From Candidatus Omnitrophota bacterium (GTDB lineage Bacteria > Omnitrophota > Gorgyraeia > Gygaellales > Profunditerraquicolaceae): 64,000 nucleotides of DNA. How positions within the stretch are numbered: the stretch's first letter is position 1; the number at the start of each line of letters is the position of its first letter. Shown here in pieces: positions 10,816-35,554 of this stretch. Made by a program: the position numbers and the translations under genes. The notes beneath the pieces were generated by a model. That model made no database searches and was not told where the DNA came from. It worked only from the letters and a program-made list of their open reading frames with translations. The stretch is taken from NCBI GenBank assembly GCA_018825985.1, contig JAHKAP010000018.1, positions 4,134 to 68,133 on the forward strand, read 5' to 3'.

Positions 10816-13800
10816 TTAACTTATCGAATCAACGATAACCAGAGCTTCCCTAAGTTCAGCCGAGCTTTCCAACGCGCTCTCTTCTTCCAGCTTACAGATA
10901 TCTATCAGACAGAGTAAGAGATTGTCAACCTGGGCATTGATCTCTTTCTTCTGGCAACAGGCAGCGATCAACTCTTTAAGCCTGTCACCTGAAGGTATAT
11001 TCCCGGCTTTAACCATATTCCTGATCTGCTCTATCTCAGAAGTAATATTGATCTGCCTTAACTGCTCCTGGCTTAAAACGGGCAAGCTGAAATTCAATCC
11101 CTTAAAACTTCCCGTAGGTTGAATGGTCATGGGTAGGGAGCGTAAGTCGATACCGCCGGTAGTTTCAGGAGCTGATTGAACCGGAGAACTACCTGTACCT
11201 TTGCCTTTAAGCTCAACAGATAGAACCTCGCCCTCCGATGACTTACCTAACAAAATCCTAAAACGTCCATCGCGATCTAACTTAGCAACTACCTGTAACA
11301 AACCACCCTTACTTATAGTATCCGGAGATATCTGGGAATTAACCAGCACGAGTAAGTTCGGCAAAATAAAGTATTCCGTAGCATCGCTCATTATATTTTT
11401 GCCAAAGTGTTCATCAAGAAACTTAGCTACTTTATCCCATGTAGCCGTTGATACATCCACCGGCGAAGCGGCGGAAACTATTACCCGCGTGACATCCGGG
11501 GTATTAAGATCAATACCTGTTTCTACATCAATGATGCGGTTAGTGGTCTCTTCTTCTGCGTCCTTACGCACCAGCTTATCCCTGCCCCATACACTTGCAA
11601 TTATACCTATTCCGATTTTCTCAATTCGCTTTTCAATATCTTGAATGTATAGATGCGCGCTGCGCGTAGGCACATCCCTGCCGTCAGCGGCAAAATGGAT
11701 TACAAATTGGTCTTTTCTTAAGTCTAATTTCTTGGCTAATCTCATCAATGCATACATATGATAAAGTGAAGAATGCACTCCGCCTTCAGAAGCAATGGTT
11801 ATATAATGGAACCTCAAATCATTCTCTTTAACCCTTTGCAATTCTTTTACCAAAACCTGAACCTCGGGCATACTTTCATCAAAGATGCCATCGCGAATAC
11901 CGCCCTTAACCAGCCTATCTACATACCACAAGGGTTGTTTATATTCTCTTAACGCAAACATGGCAAAATGGCCAACATCTGTCTGGCCTGCTTGCAAACC
12001 TCTTAAATGGTGCCTGCCTTCTTCCCAAGATAACTCTTTCCTTAACCCAATCACTTCTCCGTGCGCCTGTAGCTGAGTAAAACCACAGGCATTCTTGACC
12101 AACCAGTCATAATTGGGGGTATTGGCGAGCTTGATAGCGTCCCATTCGTAATTCTGGTCGGGATTTATACCCCAGCCATCCAAAACAGCCATCGCGATCC
12201 TGCGTTTACTTCCCTGATAATCATCAGGCAGCAAGCTCGGGTCGGATCCTTCGGGGATATCTTCTCCCAATAGATGTAATAACGTAGCCCCGTTGTTTCT
12301 AATAGTTTGCCCAGACTTTAAGGTTAATTTCCGGGTTCTTAAAGGATCATAAATAATATACGGTACTGGATTTGCAGTATGGAAAGTATCGGATTCCTTA
12401 GGATTTTCTGTCAGCCCAGCTTCTGAAGCGCCATGATCGGCAGTGATAACAAAGATTGGTATCCTTGCTTCAAAACCATTTATCCTCGAATAAAGTATCT
12501 GATTTATTTCTTTTAATCGGATCAAGAAACTATCATAATCAGTTAATAACAAGTTATCGAGAATAATCCGCGCTCTTTCATCTAGTGGATAAGAAGAAAC
12601 CTCTTCTCTTATTTTCTTAATAAACTGTCTTTTTATGCTATCGATCTTTTCTTTTATCCTTCCGATCTGCTGGTCGGTTATTTCATTGGCCTGTTTAGCT
12701 GACTTAAAGTTTCCGGTATGTTTCATCATATCTGAACCAAGTAAGTTCACCAGAATAAAATCTATAGTATCGTCATCCAATCCTCTCAATACCTCATCGG
12801 TACATTCTTTGGTTTTCATCTGGGGCGTATCTGCATAGGCCTTTTTAGATTTCTGCATTTCTATATTAATCCGCTTTTCTCCGGGATAAGGCCCATCTGT
12901 TTTCTTGCCATCTGCATTATTACCAACATGATCCTTCTTTTCGTTCTCAGAAATCTTAAGCACTTTATACATTTTGTTGGACAATATCTCGAAAAAGGTA
13001 TTAGGCACTTTAGCAATTACCTCATCAGACAAAACACTCTTGCCTTGATAATCATTACTAAATTTGATGTATCCCAATAATTTCTTAAAACCCCTGCTCC
13101 ACAGGCCTCTGGCAAAATATCCGGCCCGGTCACCCCTGACGTGCCCGACCATAACTGAATCTTCCGGCGATATAGGATGCAGCGGCTTACCGTTTTCGTC
13201 AGTAACAACAGTAAACTTTAGTACTTGCTCATTTACATCTTCCTCCAACAGGCTTTGCTCCTGTTCAACTGCCTTAGCTAAATCTGAAATTATCGGCGAG
13301 CCGGCAGCGCTTTTACTTTTTTCGCTATCAAGATGCTTCTTTATTTTATCGCGGGCATCAACAACTTTTCCAATTAACCGGTATCTTTTTTCCTTTTCCT
13401 TATTCAGCTCATCTATTTTTATATTCAATATTTCTAAAGTTTCTTCATTAAGATAGAACCTTAATGTAATAGCTGCGTCTATGGCTACTAAATCGTTTGA
13501 ACTATTGAGTCTTTCTATTAACTCTTTTAAATCATTAAATAAACTTTGGCTGGGGAAAACACCATTTTTATATAACACCTCAAGATTCCTCTCCATAGTT
13601 AAAATAATATTGATATTCGGATTTTCTTTTTTAACCTCCGCTTGCAGCGTTGTAAGATAATTATCAGCATCTTTTGTTTCTGTAACAATTGCCGAAACTA
13701 AACTTGTAACCGCTGAGCCGGCTGCGGTAACTGGCAAGCTAGAGGCGGCGTCAAAAAACGCCCTGGCCCGGCTAAAAATGCGGATAGCGGTTAACATCCC

Positions 13801-15669
13801 GGTAGGAGTTGAAATATCCGGCAACACCATAATCGCAGCGTTTGCCAATAATTTAAATTTTGATTCACAGTTTAGTAAATTACCGGCCTTATCTAAAGTC
13901 GTTGCAAAATTAACTAAAAGCGTAAAAGAGCCGGTAGTAGAATCTTCTTCCCCGGGAGATTTAACCGTGTATCCCTTTTCTTTTAAAACATTGCTTAAAA
14001 TAATAACCCTGGGATTATCGGAATAAAGTATGCTCAAAAGCTGATTTTTTTTCAACACCATAAGCGTAGCCAGCCTTTGAGCTGCAATTTCAGCAAGGCC
14101 ATTAAGCGATTCTTCTTTCCCGAAATCTTTGATCAAATAATATCTTCCATCGGCAATTTCACTCAGCAACCTCTTTTCATCATAATAAGAACTTCTTGGA
14201 TGCCTGATTAGGTTTTCCCTAAGCACCCTGTTAACACTATCTGTCGCCGAATATAATAATGATCTACTCGCGGTATCCGACAAAATACCCTTACCGTTTA
14301 AAACTACTCCTTTTAATAGATCAATATATGGTCCTGACCGGGCTTGCCGTTCAATCCTGTTATGGGCCTCCATTAAATCGTATTCTCTGCGATAATCAGG
14401 CATACCTTTAGTCGTTATCGGAGAAGCGGATATTTTTATTCCCCTCAAAGAATCGCCATCTGCTACTATTCCGGTATTAAAGATATTTGGATTAATCGGC
14501 CTGCCAATAAAACTATTCGGGTTATTTATAGGACTTCCGGCTTCTCTGCCCATATTAATCCCCCCGCTAAAATAGCTTCTGATCATCTGGCCGGTAGGGG
14601 TGTAGACAGGTTCCTTGACATTGTATTCGCCTTCCGCAAAGGATTTTTGGTAAAGTTTAAAGTAATCTGTCTTGGACCAGGCATCTTTGGAGATAAGGTT
14701 GGTCAGGTTTTTGGTTTCTATAAGAGCTGTAAAAGCAGGGACAGCCCCCTTTAAAGTACTTTCAGATACCCTGGACGGGGACAGTCCCTTGAATCTTTGT
14801 TTAAACCAGCGAGAGAGAATTAATGAATAGTATACCTGGCGAAAATTAGCGTATCTTCTGGAAGAATTTACTTCTTTGGTCAGCTTAGGAATGATCAATT
14901 CACGGATAAGCCCTGAGGAGTATTCGTTTAAAGCTTTGGAGCGTTCATCTTTAAATTGGTAAACTGAATTATTCGCAATAACAGGATTAGTCGAATTAGC
15001 CAGGTAATCTGATTCAAGCATTACCTTTAAAGTGGCTTTGTAGATATAAGCTGAATCTTCGGCTTCTCTTAAAATGATCTCACCCGGGACTATCCAGGGA
15101 CGAGTCAGGGTAGGTATATTTACGGATTCATAGCCATAAAGCTCTTCGGCTTTCTGGTAAAGCTTAGTCCAGTATTCTTTTCCTTCCGGAGTGTTAGGCG
15201 AGGTAAAAAGAGCAGTATCTTTTTTAAGCTGAAGATCGGTCTCCAGCATGATCTTGCCCACATCGGTCTTTTCCAGATACTGGTCTATGATCTGGTCTTC
15301 AGAATCAGGCCGTAGATTAACCCAAAACATGCTATCTGGAAGGGTTACACCTATTAGGAAATAATTTAAAAGGGTTTGGGTTTTGTCTTTTAAGGCTTCT
15401 TCCGGGATTTCTTCACCTTTACCTATACCTTTGCCTTCAATACCTCTGCTTAATTCATCCCCTTTATCCACCAGGAGCTTAAAACTGTTATTTAGTGAAT
15501 CATAGGAGAAATACCTTAAGTGTATCGGCCGGAACTTATCCTGAACTATATTAGAACCAAACCTGGAAAGATAATTTGCCAGGTTAAGTTCTAAGGCTAC
15601 CTGGGCAAAACTAACCTGCTGGAATAATAAGCCGAAACTTAAGACCAAAGATAAGATTTTACGGGCCAT
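10816..15669 (-). CDS. giant (1617 aa) signal-peptide protein with a duplicated, rearranged iPGM/phosphopentomutase-like alkaline-phosphatase-superfamily module at its C-terminus
   Basis: Likely start at the ATG at 15669 (MARKILSLVLSFGLLFQQVSFAQ, a signal peptide) with AGGAG 8 nt upstream; the track ORF starts 44 codons earlier. The C-terminal ~650 aa carry, in this order, VVTDENG...DSVMVGHVRGDRAG, DFILVNLLGSDMMKHTGN, ITADHG, HTANPVP, then LDGWG, QTDVGH, GGVHSS, AADGRD, IASVWGRD. The N-terminal ~900 aa match nothing I recognise. Confidence 0.7.
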   Translation of the reverse strand: MARKILSLVLSFGLLFQQVSFAQVALELNLANYLSRFGSNIVQDKFRPIHLRYFSYDSLNNSFKLLVDKGDELSRGIEGKGIGKGEEIPEEALKDKTQTLLNYFLIGVTLPDSMFWVNLRPDSEDQIIDQYLEKTDVGKIMLETDLQLKKDTALFTSPNTPEGKEYWTKLYQKAEELYGYESVNIPTLTRPWIVPGEIILREAEDSAYIYKATLKVMLESDYLANSTNPVIANNSVYQFKDERSKALNEYSSGLIRELIIPKLTKEVNSSRRYANFRQVYYSLILSRWFKQRFKGLSPSRVSESTLKGAVPAFTALIETKNLTNLISKDAWSKTDYFKLYQKSFAEGEYNVKEPVYTPTGQMIRSYFSGGINMGREAGSPINNPNSFIGRPINPNIFNTGIVADGDSLRGIKISASPITTKGMPDYRREYDLMEAHNRIERQARSGPYIDLLKGVVLNGKGILSDTASRSLLYSATDSVNRVLRENLIRHPRSSYYDEKRLLSEIADGRYYLIKDFGKEESLNGLAEIAAQRLATLMVLKKNQLLSILYSDNPRVIILSNVLKEKGYTVKSPGEEDSTTGSFTLLVNFATTLDKAGNLLNCESKFKLLANAAIMVLPDISTPTGMLTAIRIFSRARAFFDAASSLPVTAAGSAVTSLVSAIVTETKDADNYLTTLQAEVKKENPNINIILTMERNLEVLYKNGVFPSQSLFNDLKELIERLNSSNDLVAIDAAITLRFYLNEETLEILNIKIDELNKEKEKRYRLIGKVVDARDKIKKHLDSEKSKSAAGSPIISDLAKAVEQEQSLLEEDVNEQVLKFTVVTDENGKPLHPISPEDSVMVGHVRGDRAGYFARGLWSRGFKKLLGYIKFSNDYQGKSVLSDEVIAKVPNTFFEILSNKMYKVLKISENEKKDHVGNNADGKKTDGPYPGEKRINIEMQKSKKAYADTPQMKTKECTDEVLRGLDDDTIDFILVNLLGSDMMKHTGNFKSAKQANEITDQQIGRIKEKIDSIKRQFIKKIREEVSSYPLDERARIILDNLLLTDYDSFLIRLKEINQILYSRINGFEARIPIFVITADHGASEAGLTENPKESDTFHTANPVPYIIYDPLRTRKLTLKSGQTIRNNGATLLHLLGEDIPEGSDPSLLPDDYQGSKRRIAMAVLDGWGINPDQNYEWDAIKLANTPNYDWLVKNACGFTQLQAHGEVIGLRKELSWEEGRHHLRGLQAGQTDVGHFAMFALREYKQPLWYVDRLVKGGIRDGIFDESMPEVQVLVKELQRVKENDLRFHYITIASEGGVHSSLYHMYALMRLAKKLDLRKDQFVIHFAADGRDVPTRSAHLYIQDIEKRIEKIGIGIIASVWGRDKLVRKDAEEETTNRIIDVETGIDLNTPDVTRVIVSAASPVDVSTATWDKVAKFLDEHFGKNIMSDATEYFILPNLLVLVNSQISPDTISKGGLLQVVAKLDRDGRFRILLGKSSEGEVLSVELKGKGTGSSPVQSAPETTGGIDLRSLPMTIQPTGSFKGLNFSLPVLSQEQLRQINITSEIEQIRNMVKAGNIPSGDRLKELIAACCQKKEINAQVDNLLLCLIDICKLEEESALESSAELREALVIVDSIS

Positions 15670-15773
15670 TCTACGTCTCCTATGTTTATCCGCCACAAAG
15701 TCGCCACATCGATAGGCGACCCGCTTTCTGTATGGCGGGCCTAACGGATTATTTGCCTGACAAGATAGAAAGC

Positions 15774-15825
15774 AAATAAAAAACCGCAAAGCCAGACCCA
15801 AATGATTTGTTCCGTGGCAATGCGG
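15774..15825 (-). terminator. intrinsic terminator/attenuator hairpin plus U-run in the intergenic leader between pilD and the giant gene
   Basis: On the minus strand, CCGCAUUGCCAC...GUCUGGCUUUGCGG (imperfect 12-bp stem) is followed by UUUUUUAUUU. It lies 240 nt downstream of the pilD stop and about 105 nt upstream of the giant-gene ATG. Confidence 0.45.
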
Positions 15826-16077: not shown

Positions 16078-16896
16078 CTAGTGAATGAAAAATATGCGGA
16101 CTATTGGGCCTGACCAAAATAGAACAATAACCGCTGCCAGGCTTAAAAACGGGCCATAGGGAATAGTATGTTCTTTTTTGATCAATAAGTTTGCTACTCC
16201 CACGACCAGGCCGAAGAACGGAGCGATAAAAAAGGTCAAAACAGCTCCCTGCCAGCCTAAAAATGCGCCGATCATTGCCAGAAGCTTTACATCCCCTCCA
16301 CCCATAGACTCAGTCTCTCCGTCTATAGGCGGCTTTTTAAGCATTTTAAAATATACCAAGTCGAAGATCTTAGCGGTAAGATAAATTATCCCGCCGCCGA
16401 TGATGATACCTAAAAAAGAATTAACAACCTGGCTTAGGGCTTGATGATTAGAGCTTGGCAAAATAAATCTCGATAAGTTAAGTAAAAAACCGACGATTAT
16501 ACCACCGACCGAAATCTCATCCGGGATGATCCGGTGCTGGATATCTACAAAAGTGGCGATGATTAAACCGCTGATAAAAACAGCATAATATAATAATTCA
16601 AAACCGAACCCATAAATATTAAAAAATAATAAAAAAGCCGCTGCCGTAATCAACTCAATCAGAAAATAACGCGTGGGTATCCTCATCCTGCAGAAGCGAC
16701 ACTTACCCATCAGAAATAAATAACTTAATAAAGGAATGTTATCATGCCAGGGGATAGTCTTTCCGCATGAAGGGCAATAGGAACGTGGTTTTACTACGGA
16801 TTTTCCCAGGGGAAGTCGGAAAATACAGACATTTAGAAAGCTTCCTATCATTGAACCAAAAATAAAAACAAAAACCTTAATTACCGGCAGCGGCAT
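16078..16896 (-). CDS. pilD: prepilin peptidase (A24 family)
   Basis: N-terminal C-x-x-C...C-x-x-C zinc-binding region (CPSCGKTI...CRFCRMRI) with polytopic membrane topology. Confidence 0.85.
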   Translation of the reverse strand: MPLPVIKVFVFIFGSMIGSFLNVCIFRLPLGKSVVKPRSYCPSCGKTIPWHDNIPLLSYLFLMGKCRFCRMRIPTRYFLIELITAAAFLLFFNIYGFGFELLYYAVFISGLIIATFVDIQHRIIPDEISVGGIIVGFLLNLSRFILPSSNHQALSQVVNSFLGIIIGGGIIYLTAKIFDLVYFKMLKKPPIDGETESMGGGDVKLLAMIGAFLGWQGAVLTFFIAPFFGLVVGVANLLIKKEHTIPYGPFLSLAAVIVLFWSGPIVRIFFIH

Positions 16897-17731
16897 CCCT
16901 GATCCCTTCCTCTAAAGCCTGGCGCATTACTGTTAACGGGGCATTTTGGCCGGTCCAGATCTTAAACGCCGCAGCTCCCTGATATAAAAGCATGCCTAAT
17001 CCATTTGAACAAACCGCGCCCCTCTCCCGGGCAACCCACAACAACCTGGTTTCCTGGGGGCTATAGATCAGATCATAAACCAATAAATCTTTGTGGATAA
17101 GTTCCGGATTGACTAAAAGATGATCTTCTTTTTTCATCCCTACAGGAGTGCAATTCACTAATAAAGAACAGTCCTTAATATCCAATTCGTGCACTGATTC
17201 CACGGCTTTGAAATTAATTTTCTTAAAATATCCCAGGCGCTCAATCAAAGCCTGGACCCGGGACTGATCAATATCATAAATAGCGATCGAAGAAGGTTGG
17301 CTCTTACAGAGGTAGACCGCGATAGCCCGGGCAGCGCCTCCTGCGCCTAATATAGCTATGTTTTTACCGCTGGGAGAATATTTAAGATCCTGGGTCAAAT
17401 GTCTGTAAAATCCTTCCCCGTCGGTGTTAAAACCTTCCAACCCGTCGGAAAAAACCCTGATTGTGTTCACCACCCCGATCAGGCCAGCTTCAACCGAAAA
17501 ACTGGTCATAAAAGGCACAATTTTTTCTTTATAAGGATAGGTTACATTAAGTCCCTGAATATTGTTTTCTTTTAACGATTCCAAAAAACCTGCCAGATCA
17601 TCTTCTTTTAATTCAAAAAGTTTATACCCGGCATCTATATTAAGTGCCTTGAATGCAGCATTGTGCATCAACGGAGAAAGGCTATGTTTCACCGGATAGC
17701 CAACCAAACCATAAGTCTGAATAGAGGTCAT
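16877..17731 (-). CDS. aroE: shikimate dehydrogenase
   Basis: YGLVGYPVKHSLSPLMHNAAF N-terminal signature and GAGGAARA NADP site. Confidence 0.9.
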   Translation of the reverse strand: MTSIQTYGLVGYPVKHSLSPLMHNAAFKALNIDAGYKLFELKEDDLAGFLESLKENNIQGLNVTYPYKEKIVPFMTSFSVEAGLIGVVNTIRVFSDGLEGFNTDGEGFYRHLTQDLKYSPSGKNIAILGAGGAARAIAVYLCKSQPSSIAIYDIDQSRVQALIERLGYFKKINFKAVESVHELDIKDCSLLVNCTPVGMKKEDHLLVNPELIHKDLLVYDLIYSPQETRLLWVARERGAVCSNGLGMLLYQGAAAFKIWTGQNAPLTVMRQALEEGIRDAAAGN

Positions 17732-19242
17732 TTGGAGTGTACTTTGTTCAACGCATCCAGATAGGCTTTGATCGCGGCCTCAACTATATCGGTACTTGTT
17801 CCGCGTCCGGACGCGACTTTATCTTTTATCTTGAGTTTAAGAATGACTTCGCCTAAGGCGTCCTTGCCGGAAGTAACCGCTCCTAAGCGAAAATCCTCCA
17901 GGCTCCCTTTAATATTCACAATTTTATCAATCGCTTTAAAGCTGGCGTCTACCGGCCCATCACCAAACGAAGAACCTTTTAAAATATTTCCCTTTTTCCT
18001 TAATTGCACCAAAGCCTCGGGTTTAATCTCAGTCCCTGAAGAAGCCCTAAAATTCACCAATTCCCAGACCGGAATCCTGGCTATTGTTATTTCATCTTCA
18101 ATGATAGTCCTCAGGTCATCGTCAAAAATATCTTTTTTCTTATCCGCCAAGTTCTTAAAATTCTCAAAAGCCTTATTTAACTGCTCTTCATTCAAATGAA
18201 AACCTATTTTTTTCAATCTTTCGCTGAAGGCATGCCTGCCGGAATGTTTTCCCAGAACCAAGCCTTCTACCTGAAATCCGACATCCTCACCGCGGATAAT
18301 CTCATAAGTAGAACGCTCCTTAAGCACCCCGTCCTGATGAATGCCTGATTCGTGCCTGAAGGCGTTTCCTCCTACTATAGCTTTATTAGGGGCGATGACA
18401 AACCCGGTTAGTTTACTGACCAGCCTAGATGTTTTATAAATATTTTTCTTTATAATACCAGTCTTTAAGCCGGCGTAAATATCTTTGCGGGTATCTATTG
18501 ACATAACTATTTCTTCCAGGGAGGCGTTACCTGCCCTTTCGCCGATACCATTAATAGTACATTCAACCTGCCGGGCTCCGTTTTTAACCGCGGCCAGGGA
18601 ATTAGCCACAGCCAGACCTAAATCATTATGGCAGTGGACTGAAATTACAGCCTTATGGATATTCACAACATTCTCTTTAATGCCTTTAATTATTCTGCCA
18701 AATTCCTCAGGCTCGCTATAACCAACAGTATCCGGTATGTTAACCGTGCCTGCTCCGGCATTAATCACAGCTTCTACCACTCTATGAAGAAATTCCTTTT
18801 CAGTCCGGGAAGCGTCCTCCGGAGAAAACTCAATATCCGGACAGAGTTTTTTAGCGTAAGTAACTGCTTCAACTGCCAGGCGCAGAATCTCGTCTTCGGC
18901 TTTTTTAAGCTTATATTTCATATGTATCTTTGAGGTCGCCAGAAATACGTGAATGCGTGGATTTTTAGCCGGTTTTAAAGCCTCATAAGCCGCATCAATA
19001 TCCTTTTTTATTGAACGGCTCAATCCGCAAATTACCGGTCCTTTGATATTGCGGGCAATATCTTTTACTGATTCAAAATCACCCTTAGAGGAAATAGGAA
19101 ATCCCGCCTCGATTACATCTACCCTCAGCTCAGCTAAAGAACGGGCAACCTCTATTTTTTCTTTCTGGTTTAAGCTGGCTCCGGGCGCCTGTTCCCCATC
19201 CCGCAAGGTCGTATCAAATATAATTATCTTATCCATATACAC
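17728..19242 (-). CDS. leuA: 2-isopropylmalate synthase (LeuA/CimA family)
   Basis: [19 protein letters not shown]-like signature plus a C-terminal LeuA-dimer regulatory domain; 504 aa. Confidence 0.8.
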
Positions 19243-19336: not shown

Positions 19337-20329
19337 CTACTTTTTCATCCAGGGCATCATCTCACGAAGCTGTTTCCCCACCTTTTCGATCAGATGCTCA
19401 TCGCCTTCTTTTAACATCCGGTTAAAATTCGGCCTGCCGTCTTCATTCTCTTTGATCCACTCTTTGGCGAACTTCCCTTTTTGGATCTCTTTTAAAATCT
19501 TCTTCATCTCTTTCCTGGTCTTTTCGGTAATTATCCTCTTGCCCCGGCTTAAATCCCCGTAACAAGCAGTATTGGAAACTCCCCGGCGCATCCCGGATAT
19601 ACCCTTTTCCTGGATCAAATCGGTAATTAATTTTAACTCATGTAATACTTCAAAATAGGCTATCTCTGGTTGATAACCAGCCTCAACCAAAGTATCAAAA
19701 CCAGCCTTAATCAGCTCGGTCACTCCGCCGCAAAGCACAGCCTGTTCTCCGAAAAGATCAGTTTCGGTTTCTTCGGTAAAAGTAGTTTCAATTACTCCGG
19801 CCTTGGTTGCGCCTATAGCTTTGGCATAAGCCAAACCAATCTGACGGGCCACTCCAGTGGCATCCTGAAAAACCGCTAATAAACAAGGAACACCCTTGCC
19901 CTCCTCAAACATCCTGCGGACTAACGCTCCCGGTCCTTTGGGCGCGACCATAAACACATCCACATTCTTAGGCGGCTTTATTTGTTTAAAACGGATATTA
20001 AAACCATGGGAAAAACAAAGGGCCTTCCCCTTTTTTAGATTCGGCTTGATGCTTTCATTATAAACCTTGGACTGAACATGATCCTGGGTTAATATCTGTA
20101 TAATATCTCCGGCCTTAGCAGCTTCTAAAGCTGGGACAGGGGTAAACCCGTCTTTTTTAGCCTGCTCAAAATTAACAGTCCCCTCCATTTCAGAAACCAC
20201 TACATGGCATCCGGAATCACGCAAACACAATGCCTGGCCCCGGCCCTGAATACCATAACCAATAATAGCGATAGTCTTATCTTTCAACAAACTCAGATCC
20301 GCATCCTGCTCATAATAAATTTTAATCAT
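19337..20329 (-). CDS. ilvC: ketol-acid reductoisomerase
   Basis: [14 protein letters not shown]-binding motif and full-length KARI similarity. Confidence 0.9.
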
Positions 20330-20418: not shown

Positions 20419-20892
20419 CTAATAAGCCATAACTATCCTGCCGCCCCGGATCAGTTCTTTTATCCCAAACTTAGTGAGCGCCTCCAATAATTGTTTTATC
20501 TGAGCCTGCTCGCCTACTACTTCTATTACCGCGGTATCGGCCTTATGGTAAACGGTCTTGGCTAAATATTTATTTAAGATATTTTCTAATCTGGTTTTAT
20601 CTTTAGACGAATAATTAACCTTAACTAAAACCAGCTCCCTGTCCACATGTTCTTTTTTGGTAAAATCAGTTACGGTAATCACATCAATAAGCCGATTGAG
20701 CTGTTTTTTAATCTGCTCCAAAATATTTTCATCTTTAGCCTCGACAACTATGGTCATCGCTGAAATTTCCGGATCTAGAGTCTCATTAACCGCCAAGGAA
20801 GCGATATTATAACCCCGGGCGCTGAATAAACCGGATATCCTGGCTAAAACACCAAATTTGTTCTCTACTAATACTGAAATCGTATGTCTCAT
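20419..20892 (-). CDS. ilvN: acetolactate synthase small (regulatory) subunit
   Basis: ACT-domain N-terminus (HTISVLVENKFGVLARISGLFSARGYNI); 157 aa. Confidence 0.9.
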   Translation of the reverse strand: MRHTISVLVENKFGVLARISGLFSARGYNIASLAVNETLDPEISAMTIVVEAKDENILEQIKKQLNRLIDVITVTDFTKKEHVDRELVLVKVNYSSKDKTRLENILNKYLAKTVYHKADTAVIEVVGEQAQIKQLLEALTKFGIKELIRGGRIVMAY

Positions 20893-20898
20893 ATTCTC

Positions 20899-22323
20899 CT
20901 ATACTAAGTTTATAAATATCTCGGTAGTCTTTGGGTCATAACGGATACCGCTGTATTTTTTTAATTCCTCTTTTGCCTCGCTAAAACTTAAACCTTTACG
21001 GTAAGGCCTGTCGGTGGTCATGGCGTCAAAAGAATCCGCGATAGAAAGGATCCTGGCGCCCATAGGTATCTCATCCCCCTTTAAGCCATCCGGGTAACCT
21101 GTGCCGTCAAGCGACTCATGGTGGTACCTGATTATACTGCACAGCCTTGAAAGAGACCTTATCGGCTTAACGATACCTTCGCCGATCACCGGATGCCCGC
21201 GCATTACCCGGGCCTCATCCTCATTTAAAAAAGTTGGTTTTCTTAAAATATCGTCACTTATCCCGATTTTACCTACATCATGAAGAAGGGCTGCGTCTTT
21301 TAAGGATTTGATAAAATCCTGGTCCAGCCCCAATTCTTTAGCGATCTTAACCGAATAGTCAGCCACCCTGTCCGAATGGCCGCGGCTATATAGATCACGG
21401 GCCTCAACTGCCATAGCTAAAGCGGAGATTGTCTCCAGATATGTCTTTTCGGCATCGATATTTAACCTTTCATTTTCCACCGCTACAGCTGTCTGGGTAG
21501 CTAAATTAGAGATAATTATTAATTCATCTTCCTGAAAATTACCCGGGATTATCTTACCCGCTACCGCCAAGACCCCAACGATTTTATCTTTATACAACAT
21601 TGGCGCGCACAACAAAGGCGGAGCAAAAGGATCTTCACCCGAACGTTCACCCGTTTTATTGACATCGGGAACCAACAATGGTTTTTTATTTTTCGCTGCC
21701 CATCCCGGGCCTTCTTCGCCTATTTTTAATCTTAAAGAGCTAAAGACACTGCCTATCCCGGCCGAAGCTTTAATATATAACTCCTGTTTTGCATCATCAA
21801 CAAGCATTAATGCTCCGGTCTTAGCGTCCAAGGCATTTGTGGTTACCTCAATGATCAATTCTAAAAAAGTATCGATGTTTTTAGAATTGGATATCCCGGC
21901 GGCAAGCTTGGTCAAGACATCCTGTATTGTCCGCTTTGATGCCTCCAGACGCTTAATATTCTCCTCCAGATTCTTGGTAATTTCATTAAAGGTTTTGGCT
22001 AACTGAGTTATTTCGCTTTCATCATCTTTAACCTCACCCAAAACAGAAATACCCCCCCCTAATGAACCCCTAGTTTTTCTGGACAATTCCTGGATCTTTT
22101 TTATAGAACTGCGCATACTAAAAAAACCGATCATAGAACCGATCCCGATAAGAAATATGATCCTTATTAATACTCCATGACTGATATTAATTGTATCCGA
22201 GTTATTGGACCGGATCAGTAAAAAAGTAACTACTAAAAAAGGTAAAATCGACATTACAAAGAACAATACCGAGAACTTTCGGATTATAGAAGAATCTCTT
22301 ATTGAAGTTAGTTTAAGCGCCAT
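20899..22323 (-). CDS. membrane sensor HD-GYP c-di-GMP phosphodiesterase (2 TM, HAMP-like linker, GAF domain, HD-GYP domain)
   Basis: LHDVGK and HHESLDGTGYP motifs of HD-GYP, a GAF-like central region and two N-terminal hydrophobic helices. Sits between ilvB and ilvN with 16-nt and 6-nt gaps. Confidence 0.8.
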   Translation of the reverse strand: MALKLTSIRDSSIIRKFSVLFFVMSILPFLVVTFLLIRSNNSDTINISHGVLIRIIFLIGIGSMIGFFSMRSSIKKIQELSRKTRGSLGGGISVLGEVKDDESEITQLAKTFNEITKNLEENIKRLEASKRTIQDVLTKLAAGISNSKNIDTFLELIIEVTTNALDAKTGALMLVDDAKQELYIKASAGIGSVFSSLRLKIGEEGPGWAAKNKKPLLVPDVNKTGERSGEDPFAPPLLCAPMLYKDKIVGVLAVAGKIIPGNFQEDELIIISNLATQTAVAVENERLNIDAEKTYLETISALAMAVEARDLYSRGHSDRVADYSVKIAKELGLDQDFIKSLKDAALLHDVGKIGISDDILRKPTFLNEDEARVMRGHPVIGEGIVKPIRSLSRLCSIIRYHHESLDGTGYPDGLKGDEIPMGARILSIADSFDAMTTDRPYRKGLSFSEAKEELKKYSGIRYDPKTTEIFINLV

Positions 22324-22339
22324 ATTATTTATTAGAAGA

Positions 22340-24007
22340 CTAGGCTAATCCTTCGATCATCCTATTAATAGCTTCGCCTGCCGGAACCATCGGCCATACA
22401 TTTTCTTCCGGATCTACCGCGATATCCACAAAAACAACATTATCCGTATCAAAAGCCTTTATAATAGCCGCGCGAACCTGCTCTTTTTTATTCACCCGAA
22501 TACCCACCGCTCCATAGCTTTCCGCAAGTTTTACAAAATCCGGGCTATAGATAGGAGTGTGGGAATAACGCTTTTTATAAAACAGCTCCTGCCACTGCCT
22601 GACCATCCCTAAATAACCGTTGTTTAGAATAAACACCTTAACGTTTATCTTATTGGCCACGCAAGTCGCCAATTCCTGGATATTCATCTGGATCGAGCCG
22701 TCGCCGGCAATATCAATAACTTTTTTTTCCGGGCAGCCTATCTTCGCTCCTATTGCCGCCGGAAAACCAAAACCCATTGTTCCTAATCCTCCGGATGAGA
22801 TAAATGTCCGCGGATATATATAGGTAAACCACTGAGCAGCCCACATCTGGTTCTGGCCGACTTCAGTAGTGACGATTACGTCCCCTTTAGTAACATCATA
22901 GATCTGCTCAATAACATATTGAGGCTTGATCTTGCCATCTCCAGACTTATATTTTAAAGGATGCTTTTTCTTCCAGGAATCAACGGTCTTTAACCACTCT
23001 GAGGTATCCGGAGATTTTTTAATCTCTTCAATCAATTGCCCTAAAATATTTTTAGCATCACCCACTATCGGAATATCCACTTTAATATTCTTACTAATCG
23101 ATGTAGGATCAATATCAATGTGGATGACTTTTGCCGTTGGAGCAAAAGAATCGATCCTTCCGGTTACCCGGTCATCAAAACGCGCGCCCACAGCGATGAT
23201 CAAATCGGATTCAGTAGTCGCGTGGTTAGCATAAGCAGTGCCATGCATGCCCAACATACCTAAACATAAAGGATGAGTTCCCGGAAAACAGCCTAAACCC
23301 ATCAAGGTCATGGTTACAGGAGCGTTTATCTTCTCAGCCAGGACCTTTAATTCCTGGGCAGCACCGGACGTGATTACTCCTCCGCCGGCGTAGATTATCG
23401 GCTTTTTAGATTGGGATATCAATCTGGCTGATTTTTTAATCTGTCCGGGATGCCCGAAAAGAGTAGGTTTATATCCCCGGATATCCACTACTTCCGGCCA
23501 GACAAATTCAATATTCTGCATCTGGACATCCGATGGGATATCAATTAAGACCGGACCCGGCCTTCCGGTTGAGGCGATAAAAAAAGCCTCCCGAATTATC
23601 CTGGCTAGGTCTTTAGTGTCTTTGACTAAATAATTATGCTTAGTTATCGGCCGAGTGATACCTGTAACATCGGCTTCCTGAAAAGCGTCATTACCGATCA
23701 AAAAAGTCTTTACCTGGCCGGTAATTGCCACCATTGGGATGGAATCCATATAGGCATCCGCGATCCCCGTAGTAAGATTGGTTGCCCCCGGGCCTGAAGT
23801 AGCCAGGCAGACCCCCACCTTACCGGTTGCCCGAGCATAACCTTCGGCAGCATGGGCAGCGCCTTGTTCATGCCTGGTTAGTATAAGCTTTAAAGTTGAA
23901 TCGTAGAGCTTATCAAAAATAGGCAGAACCTGCCCGCCAGGGTAACCAAAGATATACTCTACGCCTTCACGCTTCAAACATTCTAATAATATTTCCGCAC
24001 CAGTCAT
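22340..24007 (-). CDS. ilvB: acetolactate synthase large (catalytic) subunit
   Basis: TPP-enzyme signature ([26 protein letters not shown]); 555 aa. Confidence 0.9.
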
Positions 24008-25660
24008 TTAACTAACCACCGCTCCTTTATCCGCTGAAGAGACCATTTTGGAATAACGGGCCAGATACCCGGTCCTGATCTTGGGAGGAACCGGAATCCA
24101 TTTCTTAAATCTTTTTTCTATTTCCTGTTTGCTTAATTTAACCTCTAATTTTCTATTCGGTATATCTATATTGATTATATCATTATCTTTTAAAATCGCA
24201 ATTACACCCTTGTTTGCCGCCTCAGGAGAAACATGCCCGATACAAGGGCCTTTAGTCCCTCCGGAAAATCTTCCGTCAGTGATCAAGGCCACGGAATCAG
24301 CCAGGCCCATACCTACGATCGCCGCGGTAGGAGCCAGCATCTCGCGCATACCCGGACCGCCTGCCGGGCCTTCATAACGGATAACGATCACTTCTGCGCC
24401 CTTAATCTTTCCCCCCAGGATCGCCTGCATCGCTTCTTCTTCCCGGTTGAAAACTTTTGCCCTTCCACTGAATTTCATCATCTTGGAGTTTACCGCTGAC
24501 TGTTTGACTACCGCCCCATTCGGCGCCAAGTTCCCGAATAAAACAGCGATACCACCCTGTTCATGATAAGCCTTATTTAACGGCCGGATCACTTCTTCAT
24601 CAAAAATCTCAGCCTCATCAGCGATCTCAAATATCTTTTTACCGCTTAAAGTCAGGGTATTATTCAATCTGGATTTTAAACGCTTCAGTACTGCCGGGAT
24701 ACCTCCGGCAAATTCCACATCTTCCATAAAATGCGGACCAGCCGGCTCCAGATTAGTGATATGCGCAGTCTTCTTGCTGATATCATCAAAAACCTTAAGC
24801 CCCAATTTGATCTTAGCTTCATTAGCGATAGCCATGAGATGTAAAACCGTATTGCTGGAACCACCCAGCGCCATATCCACAGTAATAGCATTTTCCAAGG
24901 ATTGCTTATTGATAATATCCAGCGGTTTAATATCTTTCCGGACTAATTCTACTATCCGCTCTCCGCTAGCCTGGGCGATCCTGCGTTTGTTGGCTGACAC
25001 AGCCAGAGCAGTTGCGCAACCCGGCAATGACATGCCTAAAGTTTCAGTAAGACAGGCCATGGTATTAGCGGTATAAAGGCCCTGGCATGAACCTGCGCCA
25101 GGACAGGCCTGCTGTTCAATACACTCTAATTCTCCGGCTGAGATCTCGCCTTTTTTTGCCCGGCCTAAAGCTTCATAAGTATCATGAACAAAAGCTAATT
25201 TTCTAGTCTTATACCTTCCGGAAAGCATCGGCCCGGCAGTAACTATAATTGCCGGTATATTCAATCTGGATACGCCCATAAGCATGCCCGGAGTAATTTT
25301 ATCACAGTTAGTCAAGCAGATAATCCCATCCAATTGATGGGCATTACAAACAGTCTCTATAGTATCGGCAACGATCTCCCTTGAGGCTAAAGGATAACAC
25401 ATCCCGAGATGACCCATAGCAATACCATCACAAATACCCGGGACCCCGAAGAAAAATGGCACACCTGCGGCATAACAGATACCCCGCTCAATATAACGCT
25501 CGAGATCCCGCATCCCGATATGCCCGGGGATCAGATCAGTAAAAGATGTAGCCACGCCTATAAAAGGTTTATCAAAATCCCTTTTAGATAATCCCGTAGC
25601 GTAAAGAAGCGCCCGGTGAGGAACCCTCTCCAAACCTTTCTTGATCTTGTCTGATCTCAT
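24008..25660 (-). CDS. ilvD: dihydroxy-acid dehydratase
   Basis: Full-length IlvD/EDD similarity with the Cys cluster CPGAGSC. Likely start at the ATG at 25660 (MRSDKIKKG), preceded by GGAGG. Confidence 0.9.
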
Positions 25661-25678
25661 AATAGAACCTCCAAGCAA

Positions 25679-25796: not shown

Positions 25797-27119
25797 TTAA
25801 TCAGCGCCTTCTCCGTCATGCACCACTTCGCTGTCTTGGCGCTTACGAATAATAACCCTTTTTAAAATCACGTATTTATCTATTAATTCCTTATTATTTA
25901 AATTATTCAACTGTTTAAACAGGAAATCAAACTTAGCCTCAATCTCCGCGGCAATGGCATTGCGCGTTTCAACAGGTAAAGACATAATCTCTTTTTTAAA
26001 AGGCCCTAATGCTTTTTTGCGGGTCTTATAGAAAAACTGTTCTTCGGTTTCGCCGGCCTTTGCCTCAGATGCGGCATTGACTTTCAACCATTCATAAATC
26101 TTAAGCTTCAAAGCGGCTGGAAAATGCTTGCTCTCGTAAATCATATTCTGGAATTCTGTTGCCAGATGAACCTCGGCGGCATCGCATTCCGGGAATTTAT
26201 GAAAAGCCTCGGCCGGAAGGGTTGATGCCCCGTGCTGAACAGCCCCGGATAAACCAAATTCTTTTCTGGAGATATTGGAGAGATTCTTTAAGGTATCAAA
26301 GTCCAGCTTTACCTGGGCAATTGAACCGTCAGGCAAAACCACCCCGCCATGAGAAGTCCCGGTCTGAATGGAAATCTTGCTTATCCCGGTTAACCCTTTG
26401 CGTAACTTTTCTTTATATCCGTTCATAAACGCCCTTAGATCTTCCGGCGTGGAATTTTGATGGCCGACTTCCCCGATCTCCCCGCCTACTGAAACAGTAA
26501 TTCCTTTAGGCTCGATCCTGCGTATAAACTGTGTTAACCTGGCGCAAACCTCATAATTTAACTGCTGTTGTTTTTTAATATCAGTCTTAGAAAGGTCCAC
26601 AACTGTTGAAGAATCAATATCAATATTATAAAATCCCGCGGATATCGCATCGGTTATCAGGGCCTTTAGCCCTTCCATCTCTTTATCCGGGTCTTCCTTG
26701 AATTTTTTAGCGTTAACCTGAAAATGGTCGCCCTGGATAAAGACAGGTCCTCTAAACCCCTCCTTTACTGCCGCGGCAACGATAACCGCAGAATATTCAA
26801 CCGGAGGCTGGTTAGTATAGCCCATCTCTGACTTAGCGATCTCAAAAATCACCGCGCCGCTATTATTCTTTTTTGCCGTCCTAAATAATGCCTTGGCCAG
26901 GTCATAAGTCATACTTCTTAAATTTATGGCCGGCACGGTAAAACCGCTAAAATCCCCCTTGCCCATAGCTATGTAGAAATCATGAATGCTTGAAGGGTAA
27001 ACCCCATTCTTATAACCCAAATCCAAAATCTTCTTGGCAATCTTTTTCTTGAGAGCTGTCCCATCAGCCATAATTAATTCCATTACAATCTTATCCATGT
27101 CCATCGGCCTTCTTCCCAT
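25797..27119 (-). CDS. fba: class II (metal-dependent) fructose-bisphosphate aldolase, long form
   Basis: VPAINLRS, QGDHFQ, GGEIGEVGH and HGASTLP blocks parallel the class II FBA metal and substrate sites; 440 aa. Confidence 0.7.
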   Translation of the reverse strand: MGRRPMDMDKIVMELIMADGTALKKKIAKKILDLGYKNGVYPSSIHDFYIAMGKGDFSGFTVPAINLRSMTYDLAKALFRTAKKNNSGAVIFEIAKSEMGYTNQPPVEYSAVIVAAAVKEGFRGPVFIQGDHFQVNAKKFKEDPDKEMEGLKALITDAISAGFYNIDIDSSTVVDLSKTDIKKQQQLNYEVCARLTQFIRRIEPKGITVSVGGEIGEVGHQNSTPEDLRAFMNGYKEKLRKGLTGISKISIQTGTSHGGVVLPDGSIAQVKLDFDTLKNLSNISRKEFGLSGAVQHGASTLPAEAFHKFPECDAAEVHLATEFQNMIYESKHFPAALKLKIYEWLKVNAASEAKAGETEEQFFYKTRKKALGPFKKEIMSLPVETRNAIAAEIEAKFDFLFKQLNNLNNKELIDKYVILKRVIIRKRQDSEVVHDGEGAD

Positions 27120-31536: not shown

Positions 31537-33267
31537 CTACCTTTTAAGGGCCTTTAGTTTGGCCTGCATAAATAATTCTACTTCCTTGGGAGTCGGCAGG
31601 CTTAATGCTTCTTTAGCTATCTCTTTAGCTTCTTTCGCGGTTATGGAGCGGACCAGGTATTTTATAGATGGTACTGCCAAAGAAGGCATGCTAAATTCAT
31701 CCAGCCCCATCCCCAATAATATCCAGACAAATATTTCGTCCGAGGCCATTTCGCCGCACATCCCGACCTTTATATTATTGGCGTGAGCTGAATCAATAAC
31801 GTTCTTGATCATTCTCAATACCGCCGGGTGGGCCGGCTCATAAAGATAGGCTACTTTTTCATTGGTCCGGTCAACTGCCAGGGCATACTGGATAAGGTCA
31901 TTTGTCCCAATACTGAAAAAATCCGCTTCTTTAGCCAATAAATCGGCTATCAGCGCTGCCGACGGCACCTCGATCATCACCCCTACCTCGATATCATCGT
32001 CAAAAGGAACTCTTTTTTCTTTTAACTCTTTCTTGCATTGTTCTAAAATAACATTGGCCTGCTTAAGCTCCTCTATACCTGATATCATCGGATACATCAT
32101 CTTCAATTTTCCGTAAACCGAGGCTCTGAGGATCGCCCTTAATTGCAGTTTGAATAAATCCGGACGGGCCAGGCAGAACCTGATAGCCCGCCATCCCATA
32201 AAAGGCTGCATCTCCTTCGGAATATCGAATTGAGACAAAAACTTATCTCCGCCGATATCTATAGTGCGGATGATCACCGGATACGGCTTCATCTCTTCAG
32301 CCACATATTTATAAGCCTGAAAATGCTCTTCTTCAGTAGGCAGGTCCTTACGGTTCATATAGAAGAACTCGGTGCGGTATAAGCCTATGCCCTGAGCCCC
32401 GTGGAGTTTAACCGAAGGCACCTCATCAGGAAATTCGATATTAGCGATTATCTCCACCGACTCCCCATCCTGAGTAACCGCAGGCAGGTCCTTATCTACC
32501 AGAAGCTTATCGGACAAACCCTTAAGTATTTCCTCTTCTTTCTGGTAATTTAAGAGCGTGTCTTCATCGGGATTTACAATTATCATCCCCATACTACCGT
32601 CAACGATTAATATGTCGTTCATCTTTATGCTGGCAGTGGCGTTTTGAACACCGACTACCGCAGGAATCTCCAAAGACTTGGCCATGATCGCCGTATGCGA
32701 GGTCTTGCCGCCGATATCGGTAACAAATGCGCATACATTCTGCTTATACATACTGGCGGTATCCGAGGGCGAGATATCATGAGCTACTATAACAACCTTT
32801 TCTTTTATGTCTCCCAGGCTCTTATGCTCTTTGCCCAAAAGGTTACGCAAAATCCTCCTACCCACATCATTAATATCGCTCATCCGCTCTTTAAGGTATT
32901 CGTCTTCAATTTTAGAAAAGACATCGATGTATTTTTTTAAAACCTCGGAAAAGATATAGGCAACGCTTAAATGCTCCTTTTTAAGCCTAGAGATGACCTC
33001 TTCAATCAGCATCCGGTCCTCCAGGACCAGCAAGTGAGCGTCAAATATCTGGGCCTCATCCTGGCCCATATCGGTCGAGATCCTCTTCTGCAATTCAATG
33101 ATCTCCTTACGGGTCTGGATCAAGGCCTCTTCAAATAACTGTATCTGCAAGGGTATTTCTTCCTGGGTTATCGACTGGATAGGAACAATGTATTCTTCCC
33201 TGCCTATCCTATATGCCGGGCCTATCTTTATTCCAGGAGCCGCGGCTATGCCTTTTAAAGTCAACAT
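31537..33267 (-). CDS. ptsI: phosphoenolpyruvate-protein phosphotransferase (PTS Enzyme I)
   Basis: Full-length EI similarity including GGKTSHTAI (active His) and the PEP-utilising domain. Confidence 0.9.
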   Translation of the reverse strand: MLTLKGIAAAPGIKIGPAYRIGREEYIVPIQSITQEEIPLQIQLFEEALIQTRKEIIELQKRISTDMGQDEAQIFDAHLLVLEDRMLIEEVISRLKKEHLSVAYIFSEVLKKYIDVFSKIEDEYLKERMSDINDVGRRILRNLLGKEHKSLGDIKEKVVIVAHDISPSDTASMYKQNVCAFVTDIGGKTSHTAIMAKSLEIPAVVGVQNATASIKMNDILIVDGSMGMIIVNPDEDTLLNYQKEEEILKGLSDKLLVDKDLPAVTQDGESVEIIANIEFPDEVPSVKLHGAQGIGLYRTEFFYMNRKDLPTEEEHFQAYKYVAEEMKPYPVIIRTIDIGGDKFLSQFDIPKEMQPFMGWRAIRFCLARPDLFKLQLRAILRASVYGKLKMMYPMISGIEELKQANVILEQCKKELKEKRVPFDDDIEVGVMIEVPSAALIADLLAKEADFFSIGTNDLIQYALAVDRTNEKVAYLYEPAHPAVLRMIKNVIDSAHANNIKVGMCGEMASDEIFVWILLGMGLDEFSMPSLAVPSIKYLVRSITAKEAKEIAKEALSLPTPKEVELFMQAKLKALKR

Positions 33268-33269
33268 TT

Positions 33270-33533
33270 TTATTCCTCTTGAGTAATAATCTTTTCTAAT
33301 TCGGCTATGGCCTGTTGGGCATCGCTGCCATCCGCCTGAATCACTATTACGCTGCCCTTTTCTGCCCCCAACATCAAAATACCCATAATAGATTTCCCGT
33401 CAACCTCTTCTTTATCCCGGCTGACAATCACCCGCGAATCAAATTTGTTCGCTACCTGGACAAATAAAGCCGCCGGCCGGGCATGTAATCCCTGCTTATT
33501 TTTAACCGTCATTTTCTTTTTTACTAAAGGCAT
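33270..33533 (-). CDS. ptsH: phosphocarrier protein HPr
   Basis: GLHARPA His15 motif; 87 aa. Confidence 0.9.
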   Translation of the reverse strand: MPLVKKKMTVKNKQGLHARPAALFVQVANKFDSRVIVSRDKEEVDGKSIMGILMLGAEKGSVIVIQADGSDAQQAIAELEKIITQEE

Positions 33534-33538
33534 GCTAT

Positions 33539-35258: not shown

Positions 35259-35308
35259 ATTCTTCGCTCCTTTTGATTTTTCCTAAACTTGATTGTTTCA
35301 AAAAATTA

Positions 35309-35381
<73 letters not shown>

Positions 35382-35414
35382 CGTCGCTCGCTATATGTTT
35401 TTTCCATATAATAG

Positions 35415-35496
35415 TGCGGACGAAGGGATTTGAACCCCCAAGGGTTGCCCCAATAGCTCCTAAGGCTATCGCGTATGCCAATTCCGCCACGTCCGC
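35415..35496 (-). tRNA. tRNA-Leu (UAG), type II with a long variable arm
   Basis: GCGGACG acceptor, AUAGC-CUUAGGA-GCUAU anticodon arm, long variable arm GGGGCAACCC, UUCAAAU T-loop. Confidence 0.85.
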
Positions 35497-35554
35497 AGAG
35501 CTTTTTCCCTTTTACCGCTTCGCTCTTGACTATTAACTTTTGATTCTGAATTTA

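Follow-up and report, generated by a model that had tools for sequence, protein, structure and literature searches.

We analysed a 64,000-nucleotide window (64 kb; the whole stretch of DNA under study, to which all positions without a locus label refer) of contig JAHKAP010000018.1 from a Candidatus Omnitrophota bacterium, in which a gene for a putative cyclic-dinucleotide phosphodiesterase of the HD-GYP class lies among the genes of branched-chain amino acid (BCAA) biosynthesis. The HD-GYP gene (20899..22323) encodes 474 aa and is flanked by ilvB (22340..24007) and ilvN (20419..20892), the genes for the large and the small (ACT) subunit of biosynthetic acetolactate synthase. Both subunits scored above the NCBIfam equivalog cut-offs (TIGR00118, 882.9 bits with a cut-off of 538; TIGR00119, 162.9 bits with a cut-off of 56.9). 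Upstream of ilvB lies ilvD (24008..25678), identified in the list of open reading frames (ORFs) and by Pfam as a dihydroxy-acid dehydratase gene, whose stop codon abuts the ilvB start with a gap of 0 nt. Downstream of ilvN lies ilvC (19337..20329) for ketol-acid reductoisomerase, which matched Pfam KARI_N and KARI_C. The order on the minus strand, on which all of these genes lie, is a class II aldolase-like gene (25797..27119), which marks the upstream end of a conserved cluster, followed by ilvD, ilvB, the HD-GYP gene, ilvN, ilvC, leuA (17728-19242), aroE (16877-17731) and the prepilin peptidase gene pilD (16078-16896). The last three make up the downstream part of the cluster (16078..19242), and aroE shares stop/start codon overlaps with both leuA and pilD.

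The ORF and its gaps of 16 nt to ilvB and 6 nt to ilvN agreed in coordinates and sequence with the original prediction. The ilvB-to-HD-GYP junction (22324..22339) contains no Shine-Dalgarno-like purine run, and at the HD-GYP-to-ilvN junction (20893..20898) the ribosome-binding site of ilvN, GGAG, lies inside the last HD-GYP codons. The ATG start of the HD-GYP gene was backed by an N-terminal alignment with 38 homologues. The GC content ranged from 0.37 to 0.48 along the gene, similar to that of its neighbours. A recent horizontal insertion was ruled out, because the GC content is not anomalous and the gene is common to diverged relatives.

The domain architecture was assigned from hydropathy, Pfam and an AlphaFold2 model (mean pLDDT, the predicted local distance difference test score, of 79), which showed two long N-terminal helices, HAMP-like helices, a GAF domain, a connecting helix and an HD-GYP domain. 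The two transmembrane (TM) helices, the GAF domain and the HD-GYP domain that had been predicted originally were thus all recovered, but a HAMP-like segment at residues ~72-130 had been overlooked. Two 19-residue hydrophobic windows exceeded 2.0 on the Kyte-Doolittle scale. TM1 covers residues ~17-38 (22210..22275; helix 13-40 in the model) with a mean pairwise identity of 0.76, and TM2 covers residues ~51-71 (22111..22173; hydrophobic segment at ~50-70, within model helix 49-89). A conserved cytoplasmic motif, SIExAxLIRKFxVLF, precedes TM1. The loop between the two helices on the outer side is only ~8-12 residues long (8 in the model) and poorly conserved (identity 0.29); it is therefore too small for a periplasmic sensor domain, and the anchor is membrane-embedded only. 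The HAMP-like two-helix segment (21934..22110) runs into a signalling helix at residues 131-147. It matched the TM2-HAMP regions of the NCBIfam models of WalK (residues 54-147, E=1e-6) and MtrB (residues 43-129, E=2e-3), and was modelled as helices 49-89 and 104-145 with low pLDDT (47-58). Pfam HAMP was not matched in the window protein at E<=0.01, and PF00672 is recorded for relatives of the subfamily G2 described below. The GAF domain is joined to the HD-GYP domain by a 45-residue helix (265-309) in the model.

The HD-GYP domain (residues 302-465; 20929..21420) matched Pfam HD_5 with E=1.2e-36 over profile positions 3-169 of 170, indicating a full-length domain and not merely a generic HD domain. 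It contains the motif LLHDVGK, and the sequence HHESLDGTGYPDGL at residues 401-414 fits the HHExh(D/N)GxGYP motif, the HHESLDGTGYP stretch being complete. The best relative with a solved structure was PmGH from Persephonella marina (4mcw; E=2.7e-45 over residues 136-472), with an alignment that spans both the GAF and the HD-GYP domain. We compared the key residues of the window protein (D310, H316, H348-D349, K352, H377, H401-H402-E403, G409-Y410-P411, D430 and D433) with those of PmGH, for which the residue roles and metal ligands have been reported (PMC4159591). In this alignment, H189, H221/D222, H250, H276/H277 and D305 of PmGH correspond to H316, H348/D349, H377, H401/H402 and D430, and D183, K225 and D308 correspond to D310, K352 and D433, respectively. 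Seven of the eight metal ligands of PmGH, together with the equivalents of D183, K225 and D308, are thus present and vary little or not at all among 33 full-length orthologues; H316 is kept in 32 of the 33, and the remaining shared metal ligands are invariant. The same catalytic positions were conserved in an alignment of 39 sequences. The alignment check envisaged in the original prediction therefore found the HD and GYP residues intact, and a degenerate or inactive domain was rejected, since the catalytic and GYP residues are conserved in the 33 orthologues and in the subfamilies G2 and G3 alike.

The eighth metal ligand of PmGH, E185, aligns with Y312 (Y312-S-R against E185-T-Q), and a tyrosine occupies this position in 31 of the 33 orthologues. 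The carboxylate followed by T-G that distinguishes the E/D-T-G (trinuclear) subgroup of HD-GYP proteins from the Y/F subgroup (PMC4159591) was not found at this position in the window protein. By that distinction the protein belongs to the Y/F subgroup, and a trinuclear iron centre is therefore not expected. The HD-GYP domain alone also matched V-cGAP3 from Vibrio cholerae (5z7c), which is specific for 3'3'-cyclic GMP-AMP (3'3'-cGAMP), with 121 bits and E=5e-34, almost as well as PmGH. On these residues and matches, the enzyme class predicted for the protein, HD-GYP phosphodiesterase, is secure, whereas cyclic di-GMP (c-di-GMP), the substrate named originally, is the one we infer as the most probable, the HD-GYP domain being about as close to V-cGAP3 as to PmGH.

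The GAF domain (residues 148-283; 21475..21882) was detected by the Pfam families GAF_2 (E=3e-12), GAF and GAF_3, and was modelled on its own with a pLDDT of 81. The best fold matches of this GAF-only model in Foldseek were the PtsP GAF domain (3trc, 3ci6), cAMP-bound Lcd1 (5w10), the DosS heme GAF domains and PmGH. A GAF profile run against the Protein Data Bank (PDB) gave Lcd1 as the best match (5.5e-16), followed by PtsP (4e-12), CyaB2 (1.4e-11), DevS (~1e-10) and PDE10A (7.7e-8); the likeness to the GAF domains that bind cyclic nucleotides is one of overall similarity. CodY, whose GAF domain is known to bind BCAAs (PMC5314169), was absent among the 42 PDB sequences matched by the profile, even at E<=10, and among the top 50 Foldseek matches. 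The GAF ligands given in the literature are cAMP for Tlr0485 and Lcd1 and GDP for DcpA, with none known for PmGH; among GAF-HD-GYP proteins, a ligand is known for Tlr0485 alone.

To place the gene in a wider context, we scanned metagenomes with the family-specific N-terminal half of the protein as seed, which gave 46 loci, and mapped the window proteins onto these, onto the Candidatus Gygaella obscura locus L001 and onto L003. Homologues of the window protein that are 473-490 aa long and 49-65% identical to it came nearly all from Omnitrophota assemblies; a partial protein with 100% identity is annotated in NCBI to Candidatus Omnitrophica bacterium. The subfamily that includes the window protein, here called G1, was encoded inside the ilv block at 47 of 47 loci (window counted), all of them found through the HD-GYP protein itself. 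Two positions are used. The order ilvB-X-ilvN-ilvC of the window, where X is the HD-GYP gene (slot A), was found at 15 of the 47 loci, and the order ilvB-ilvN-X-ilvC (slot B) at the other 32; P0087, which is just 51% identical, is encoded in slot A as well. The number of independent lineages is smaller than 47, because the pairs L001/L088, L102/L103, L105/L106 and L128/L129 are near-duplicates. In the control set of 85 loci with different HD-GYP genes (five of G2 and 80 that hold paralogues or come from other phyla; mean length 12.7 kb), an ilvB-like gene occurred in 1 and a leuA-like gene in 2; the control paralogues (31-52% identity) had been collected by a full-length-alignment contig scan keyed to universal HD-GYP motifs. 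The adjacency of HD-GYP and ilv genes is thus far beyond chance (47/47 versus 1/85).

The junctions at the G1 loci are mostly 0-20 nt long or overlapping, with many overlaps of -1 or -4. The median gaps were 5 nt from ilvB to X and 15 nt from X to ilvN in slot A, and 2 nt from ilvN to X and 34 nt from X to ilvC in slot B. At the slot-B loci and at loci free of an HD-GYP gene, the ilvB stop overlaps the ilvN start (median gap -1 nt). Two of the loci (L107:922-2333 and L124:2802-4213) carry the HD-GYP gene as two adjacent reading-frame segments, which may reflect either a pseudogene with a frameshift or a fault in the assembly. The cluster itself also varies. Some relatives have an additional gene, 610-623 aa in length, between ilvC and leuA (L001:9476-11308, Gygaella obscura, without a Pfam match; L134:5605-7476, with DUF3352), so the cluster takes insertions at other junctions too, and L001 and L088 lack ilvD at its normal position.

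A second subfamily, G2 (P0090, P0095, P0096, P0102, P0104, P0113, P0120 and the L123 protein), is ~49% identical to G1 and 58-80% identical within itself, and was linked to ilv genes in none of the five loci examined. Its gene precedes purB and purL in L003 (8550-12851), lies between a glyceraldehyde-3-phosphate dehydrogenase gene and a major facilitator superfamily (MFS) transporter gene in L131 (7590-8285), comes after a cluster of response-regulator and GGDEF genes and before MFS and AMP-binding/acyltransferase (Aas-like) genes in L132 (7618-11516), and precedes pyrR, pyrB and pyrC in L133 (7623-10391); L123 is a 3.5-kb contig without an ilv gene. MFS genes thus come after G2 in two loci, and purine or pyrimidine biosynthesis genes in two others, too few loci for a pattern. 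The GAF domains of G1 and of G2, which is not ilv-linked, are 43-50% identical, compared with 49-50% for the whole proteins. The divergence of the GAF domain therefore tracks that of the whole protein, and its pocket shows no sign of retuning with the genomic context.

We also sampled relatives independently of the HD-GYP gene, using ilvN as seed, and obtained five long contigs with an ilvN 78-82% identical to that of the window. Three of them (L135, L136 and L137) have a plain ilvB-ilvN-ilvC block without an HD-GYP gene, within the same aldolase-ilvD-ilvB-ilvN-ilvC-leuA-aroE cluster. The ilvN gene is at 4001-4474 in each; it overlaps or directly adjoins ilvB, and ilvC follows it after 12-18 nt. 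The other two carry a slot-A HD-GYP gene of a third subfamily, G3 (L134:2556-4004; L138:2562-4004), with the same TM-TM-HAMP-GAF-HD-GYP build and intact motifs; these two proteins share 62% identity with each other but only ~42% with G1 and G2. The ilv, leuA and aroE genes of these two contigs are close to those of relatives with a slot-B gene or with no HD-GYP gene. At none of the 47 G1 and two G3 loci did the HD-GYP gene lie elsewhere in the ~12-kb cluster. The gene inserted into an ilv operon that the original prediction described is thus located as stated, but it is no local oddity: the family has long and repeatedly occupied the Omnitrophota ilv block, with two slots and two subfamilies, and the embedding seen at every G1 locus is not universal among relatives.

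The phylogenies of the flanking genes and of the HD-GYP genes do not tell one simple history. The flanks of L138 (slot A, G3) are closest to those of L106 (slot B, G1) and L137 (no HD-GYP gene). L138 groups with L106 in a tree of ilvB, ilvN, ilvC and leuA with 95% bootstrap support, and the aroE identities are 77% for L138-L106, 71% for L138-L137 and 74% for L106-L137. L136, without an HD-GYP gene, is closest by aroE to L122 (slot A, G1) with 75% identity. In the HD-GYP tree, a clade of 11 slot-A loci is supported at 93%, and the window falls outside that clade without support. The backbones of both the HD-GYP and the flank trees were poorly supported, and the tree of ilvN and ilvC alone was unresolved. 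A single swap between slots A and B was rejected as too simple, given the placement of the window outside the slot-A clade and the grouping of the L138 flanks with slot-B loci at 95%. Near relatives differ in state, and gain, loss, swap or replacement has therefore recurred. Judging from these comparisons, the occupancy of the ilv block by this TM-HAMP-GAF-HD-GYP family is recurrent but labile. The changes of state may have been aided by homologous recombination within the ilv flanks, which are highly conserved, and the history may be one of an ancient linkage left by the G2 lineages or one of repeated recruitment.

We then searched the window for signals of transcription and translation. The promoter/terminator scan found no terminator-like site at either HD-GYP junction, in line with the earlier claim of none on either side, and promoter-like matches were at the level of shuffled sequences (20 found, 24.6 expected); since the counts were at or under the shuffled expectation, the scan is uninformative. 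The Rfam matches in the window were three tRNAs only, with no T-box, leader or c-di-GMP riboswitch. The tight or overlapping junctions at orthologous loci, with their many -1 and -4 overlaps, argue for co-transcription and translational coupling, and the earlier claim that the HD-GYP gene is co-transcribed with the BCAA genes is therefore well supported by comparative inference. The HD-GYP start in the window lacks a Shine-Dalgarno-like motif, whereas the ilvN start has GGAG; among the orthologues such a motif was found at 20 of 46 HD-GYP starts compared to 30 of 30 ilvC starts, the start calls being approximate. The sparse motifs are a weak hint that the HD-GYP gene may be translated at a low, coupling-dependent rate, as would suit a regulatory protein.

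These data lead us to a reading that we consider probable and the most likely of those weighed here, namely a functional phosphodiesterase of the PmGH type that is synthesised in step with the ilv operon and gated in its activity by GAF and/or membrane input. The ORF product would be a catalytically competent, membrane-anchored cyclic-dinucleotide phosphodiesterase, acting most probably on c-di-GMP. It would belong to the GAF-HD-GYP (PmGH-like) family with an added N-terminal two-TM/HAMP-like module, and its gene would be a genuine member of an ilvD-ilvB-[X]-ilvN-ilvC-leuA operon. We propose that the amount of enzyme follows the expression of the ilv operon, because the gene would be co-transcribed and often translationally coupled with it; the linkage itself would be under selection. 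A cytoplasmic ligand of the GAF domain, a membrane signal relayed by the TM/HAMP module, or both, might additionally gate the activity. Overall, the level of the second messenger, and hence surface or pilus behaviour, would be expected to be tied to the anabolic state. The GGDEF-domain protein encoded in the G2 locus L132 also speaks for this reading, as do the precedents of CodY and SpdE described below.

Several observations weigh against it. The window encodes no GGDEF, EAL or PilZ protein and holds no c-di-GMP riboswitch. The membership in the Y/F subgroup would leave the stoichiometry of the metal centre less certain, and the HD-GYP domain matches the cGAMP enzyme V-cGAP3 and PmGH nearly equally. 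The three of five ilvN-sampled relatives without the gene imply that the linkage is dispensable. In addition, of the 59 ORFs in the window that reach 70 aa and do not overlap one another, 57 lie on the minus strand in a nearly gap-free array of housekeeping genes from unrelated pathways (phosphoenolpyruvate carboxykinase, purC, pta, trxA, ilv/leu, aroE, phosphofructokinase, S-adenosylmethionine cycle, phosphotransferase system (PTS), rpsB-tsf-pyrH-frr, recJ, argS, trp genes, aroA, prfA, rho, polA and folD). With such extreme co-orientation, adjacency is weaker evidence of shared function in these compact genomes. This last point also speaks for the main rival, in which the enzyme is real and its ilv position has no functional meaning, the gene having landed once in a permissive junction and been shuffled locally or recombined through the ilv flanks, and lost without consequence. 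The aldolase, aroE and pilD genes of the same cluster are consistent with such hitch-hiking, as are the relatives without the gene, the differing states of near relatives and the disagreement between flank and HD-GYP phylogenies, which recombination predicts. However, two subfamilies only ~42% identical both occupy the ilvB/N/C block, two slots are used yet never the other junctions of the cluster (47 G1 and two G3 loci), though the ilvC-leuA junction accepts genes, and the junctions have been tightened to overlaps. Ilv linkage is also lacking in all five G2 loci and found in only 1 of 85 control loci. We therefore regard the neutral explanation as somewhat unlikely, though it is the strongest competitor.

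Other alternatives concern what the enzyme acts on and what it senses. A different cyclic dinucleotide as substrate, such as 3'3'-cGAMP, is suggested by the V-cGAP3 match and by a common Y-x-x-G-H-S-x-R-V signature around Y312, and some HD-GYP proteins do hydrolyse cGAMP. Most characterised HD-GYP proteins act on c-di-GMP, however, as does PmGH, the best overall match and the GAF-HD-GYP paradigm, and the GGDEF protein in the locus of the related G2 protein points the same way, so that cGAMP seems an unlikely substrate. That the HD-GYP domain acts only as a scaffold or receptor is highly improbable: inactive HD-GYP proteins such as Bd1817 exist, but Bd1817 was a weak match (E=8.5e-6) and the conservation of the catalytic residues speaks against it. 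As for the input, the GAF domain was originally suggested to sense a BCAA, and it might equally bind a pathway intermediate (acetolactate, 2-ketoisovalerate), in which case the enzyme would report the pathway status directly. The genomic context favours this idea, and PtsP GAF domains were among the closest fold matches; PtsP- and NifA-type GAF domains have been reported to sense glutamine and 2-oxoglutarate. GAF domains can also bind BCAAs, as that of CodY does (PMC5314169). However, CodY was found neither by the GAF profile nor among the fold matches, the best profile match was the cAMP-binding Lcd1 GAF domain, and Tlr0485 uses cAMP. The GAF identity to G2 also simply follows the whole-protein identity. 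The nearest GAF domains are thus of the cAMP, PtsP and heme types, so that BCAA sensing is not supported by sequence or structure, and we consider it quite unlikely. No more convincing, in our estimate, is the broader idea that the TM-HAMP-GAF-HD-GYP family is a dedicated coupler of BCAA (or 2-oxo-acid/branched-lipid) metabolism to second-messenger signalling in Omnitrophota. On that view, the family would have entered the ilvB/ilvN/ilvC block at least twice, its two divergent subfamilies and two slots would reflect a need for a fixed proportion to acetolactate synthase, and its GAF or membrane module would sense a pathway-related metabolite, or the enzyme would act on the synthase.

Some other features of the window deserve mention. 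A PTS cluster of the regulatory type without a permease (31537-35258, minus strand) lies ~10 kb upstream of the ilv block and is a possible nutrient-signalling module. It comprises the genes for EIIA-2 (34791-35258), a CofD/YvcK-like protein with a 110-residue N-terminal extension (33539-34804), HPr (33270-33533) and an Enzyme I without a GAF domain (31537-33267), all on the minus strand. Next to it, three tRNA genes lie in a row (35310-35627, minus strand), overlapped by an 85-aa ORF (35233-35490) that has no Pfam match and is probably not a gene. A 1661-aa ORF at 10816-15801 (minus strand) matches cofactor-independent phosphoglycerate mutase (iPGM) only in its C-terminal 730 residues, and in an unusual order, with the metalloenzyme part (931-1055) ahead of the iPGM N-terminal part (1201-1425). 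All scores were under the equivalog cut-off (215 versus 331 bits), and neither Pfam nor NCBIfam gave a match in the first ~900 residues; a fusion, an iPGM that is permuted or interrupted, and a mis-joined ORF are all conceivable.

The enzymes of c-di-GMP turnover are numerous and their inputs mostly unknown, so that a recurrent operon context is one of the few input clues available for uncultured bacteria. In the present case, the genes for the first enzymes that the valine, leucine and isoleucine pathways have in common have repeatedly come to include a phosphodiesterase gene, at two alternative positions. Should this linkage be functional, messenger breakdown would scale with the expression of anabolic genes, a simple wiring rule, and a soluble GAF-HD-GYP fragment would be tractable for ligand screening. 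If the family is a coupler, it would represent a metabolic input into c-di-GMP signalling that has not been described before. A neutral linkage, by contrast, would be a caution on inferring function from the order of genes in genomes that are compact and co-directional.

The protein is a member of a known family, and its recurrent ilv operon context appears to be unreported: no description of an HD-GYP gene recurrently between or beside the acetolactate synthase subunit genes was found in the searchable literature (HD-GYP with acetolactate synthase; Omnitrophota with c-di-GMP). Comparison with known systems showed that PmGH likewise has a long helix connecting its GAF domain to a complete HD-GYP domain, and that the window protein has the GYP motif and seven of the eight metal ligands of PmGH. 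However, in the window protein the GAF domain is preceded by two TM helices and a HAMP-like segment, Y312 stands in place of E185, and the gene lies in a biosynthetic operon. V-cGAP3 shares the HD-GYP domain, the tyrosine at the E185 position and the GHSxRV context, but it consists of tandem HD-GYP-like modules without TM, HAMP or GAF parts and comes from another genomic context and organism; from the sequences compared, this likeness would not allow the substrate preference to be read. Tlr0485 from Thermosynechococcus and Lcd1 from Leptospira have a GAF domain directly upstream of a c-di-GMP output domain, and Tlr0485 is itself a GAF-HD-GYP protein, whereas Lcd1 is a cyclase and neither is membrane-anchored as the window protein is. 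To our knowledge, neither of them has an operon link to ilv genes.

Ties between BCAA status and c-di-GMP levels exist elsewhere. The BCAA/GTP sensor CodY is reported to influence c-di-GMP turnover in C. difficile (PMC13353743), and SpdE, a diguanylate cyclase from Aeromonas veronii, is a sensor of valine and isoleucine (PMC8846402). The likeness is one of functional analogy only: those systems use a transcription factor or a periplasmic dCache sensor, whereas the coupling in the window would arise from embedding in the operon. Finally, compared to the canonical ilvBN(C) and ilvBHC-leu operons, ilvB, ilvN and ilvC are all present, intact and co-directional in the window, but a 1.4-kb signalling gene splits the genes of the two acetolactate synthase subunits.

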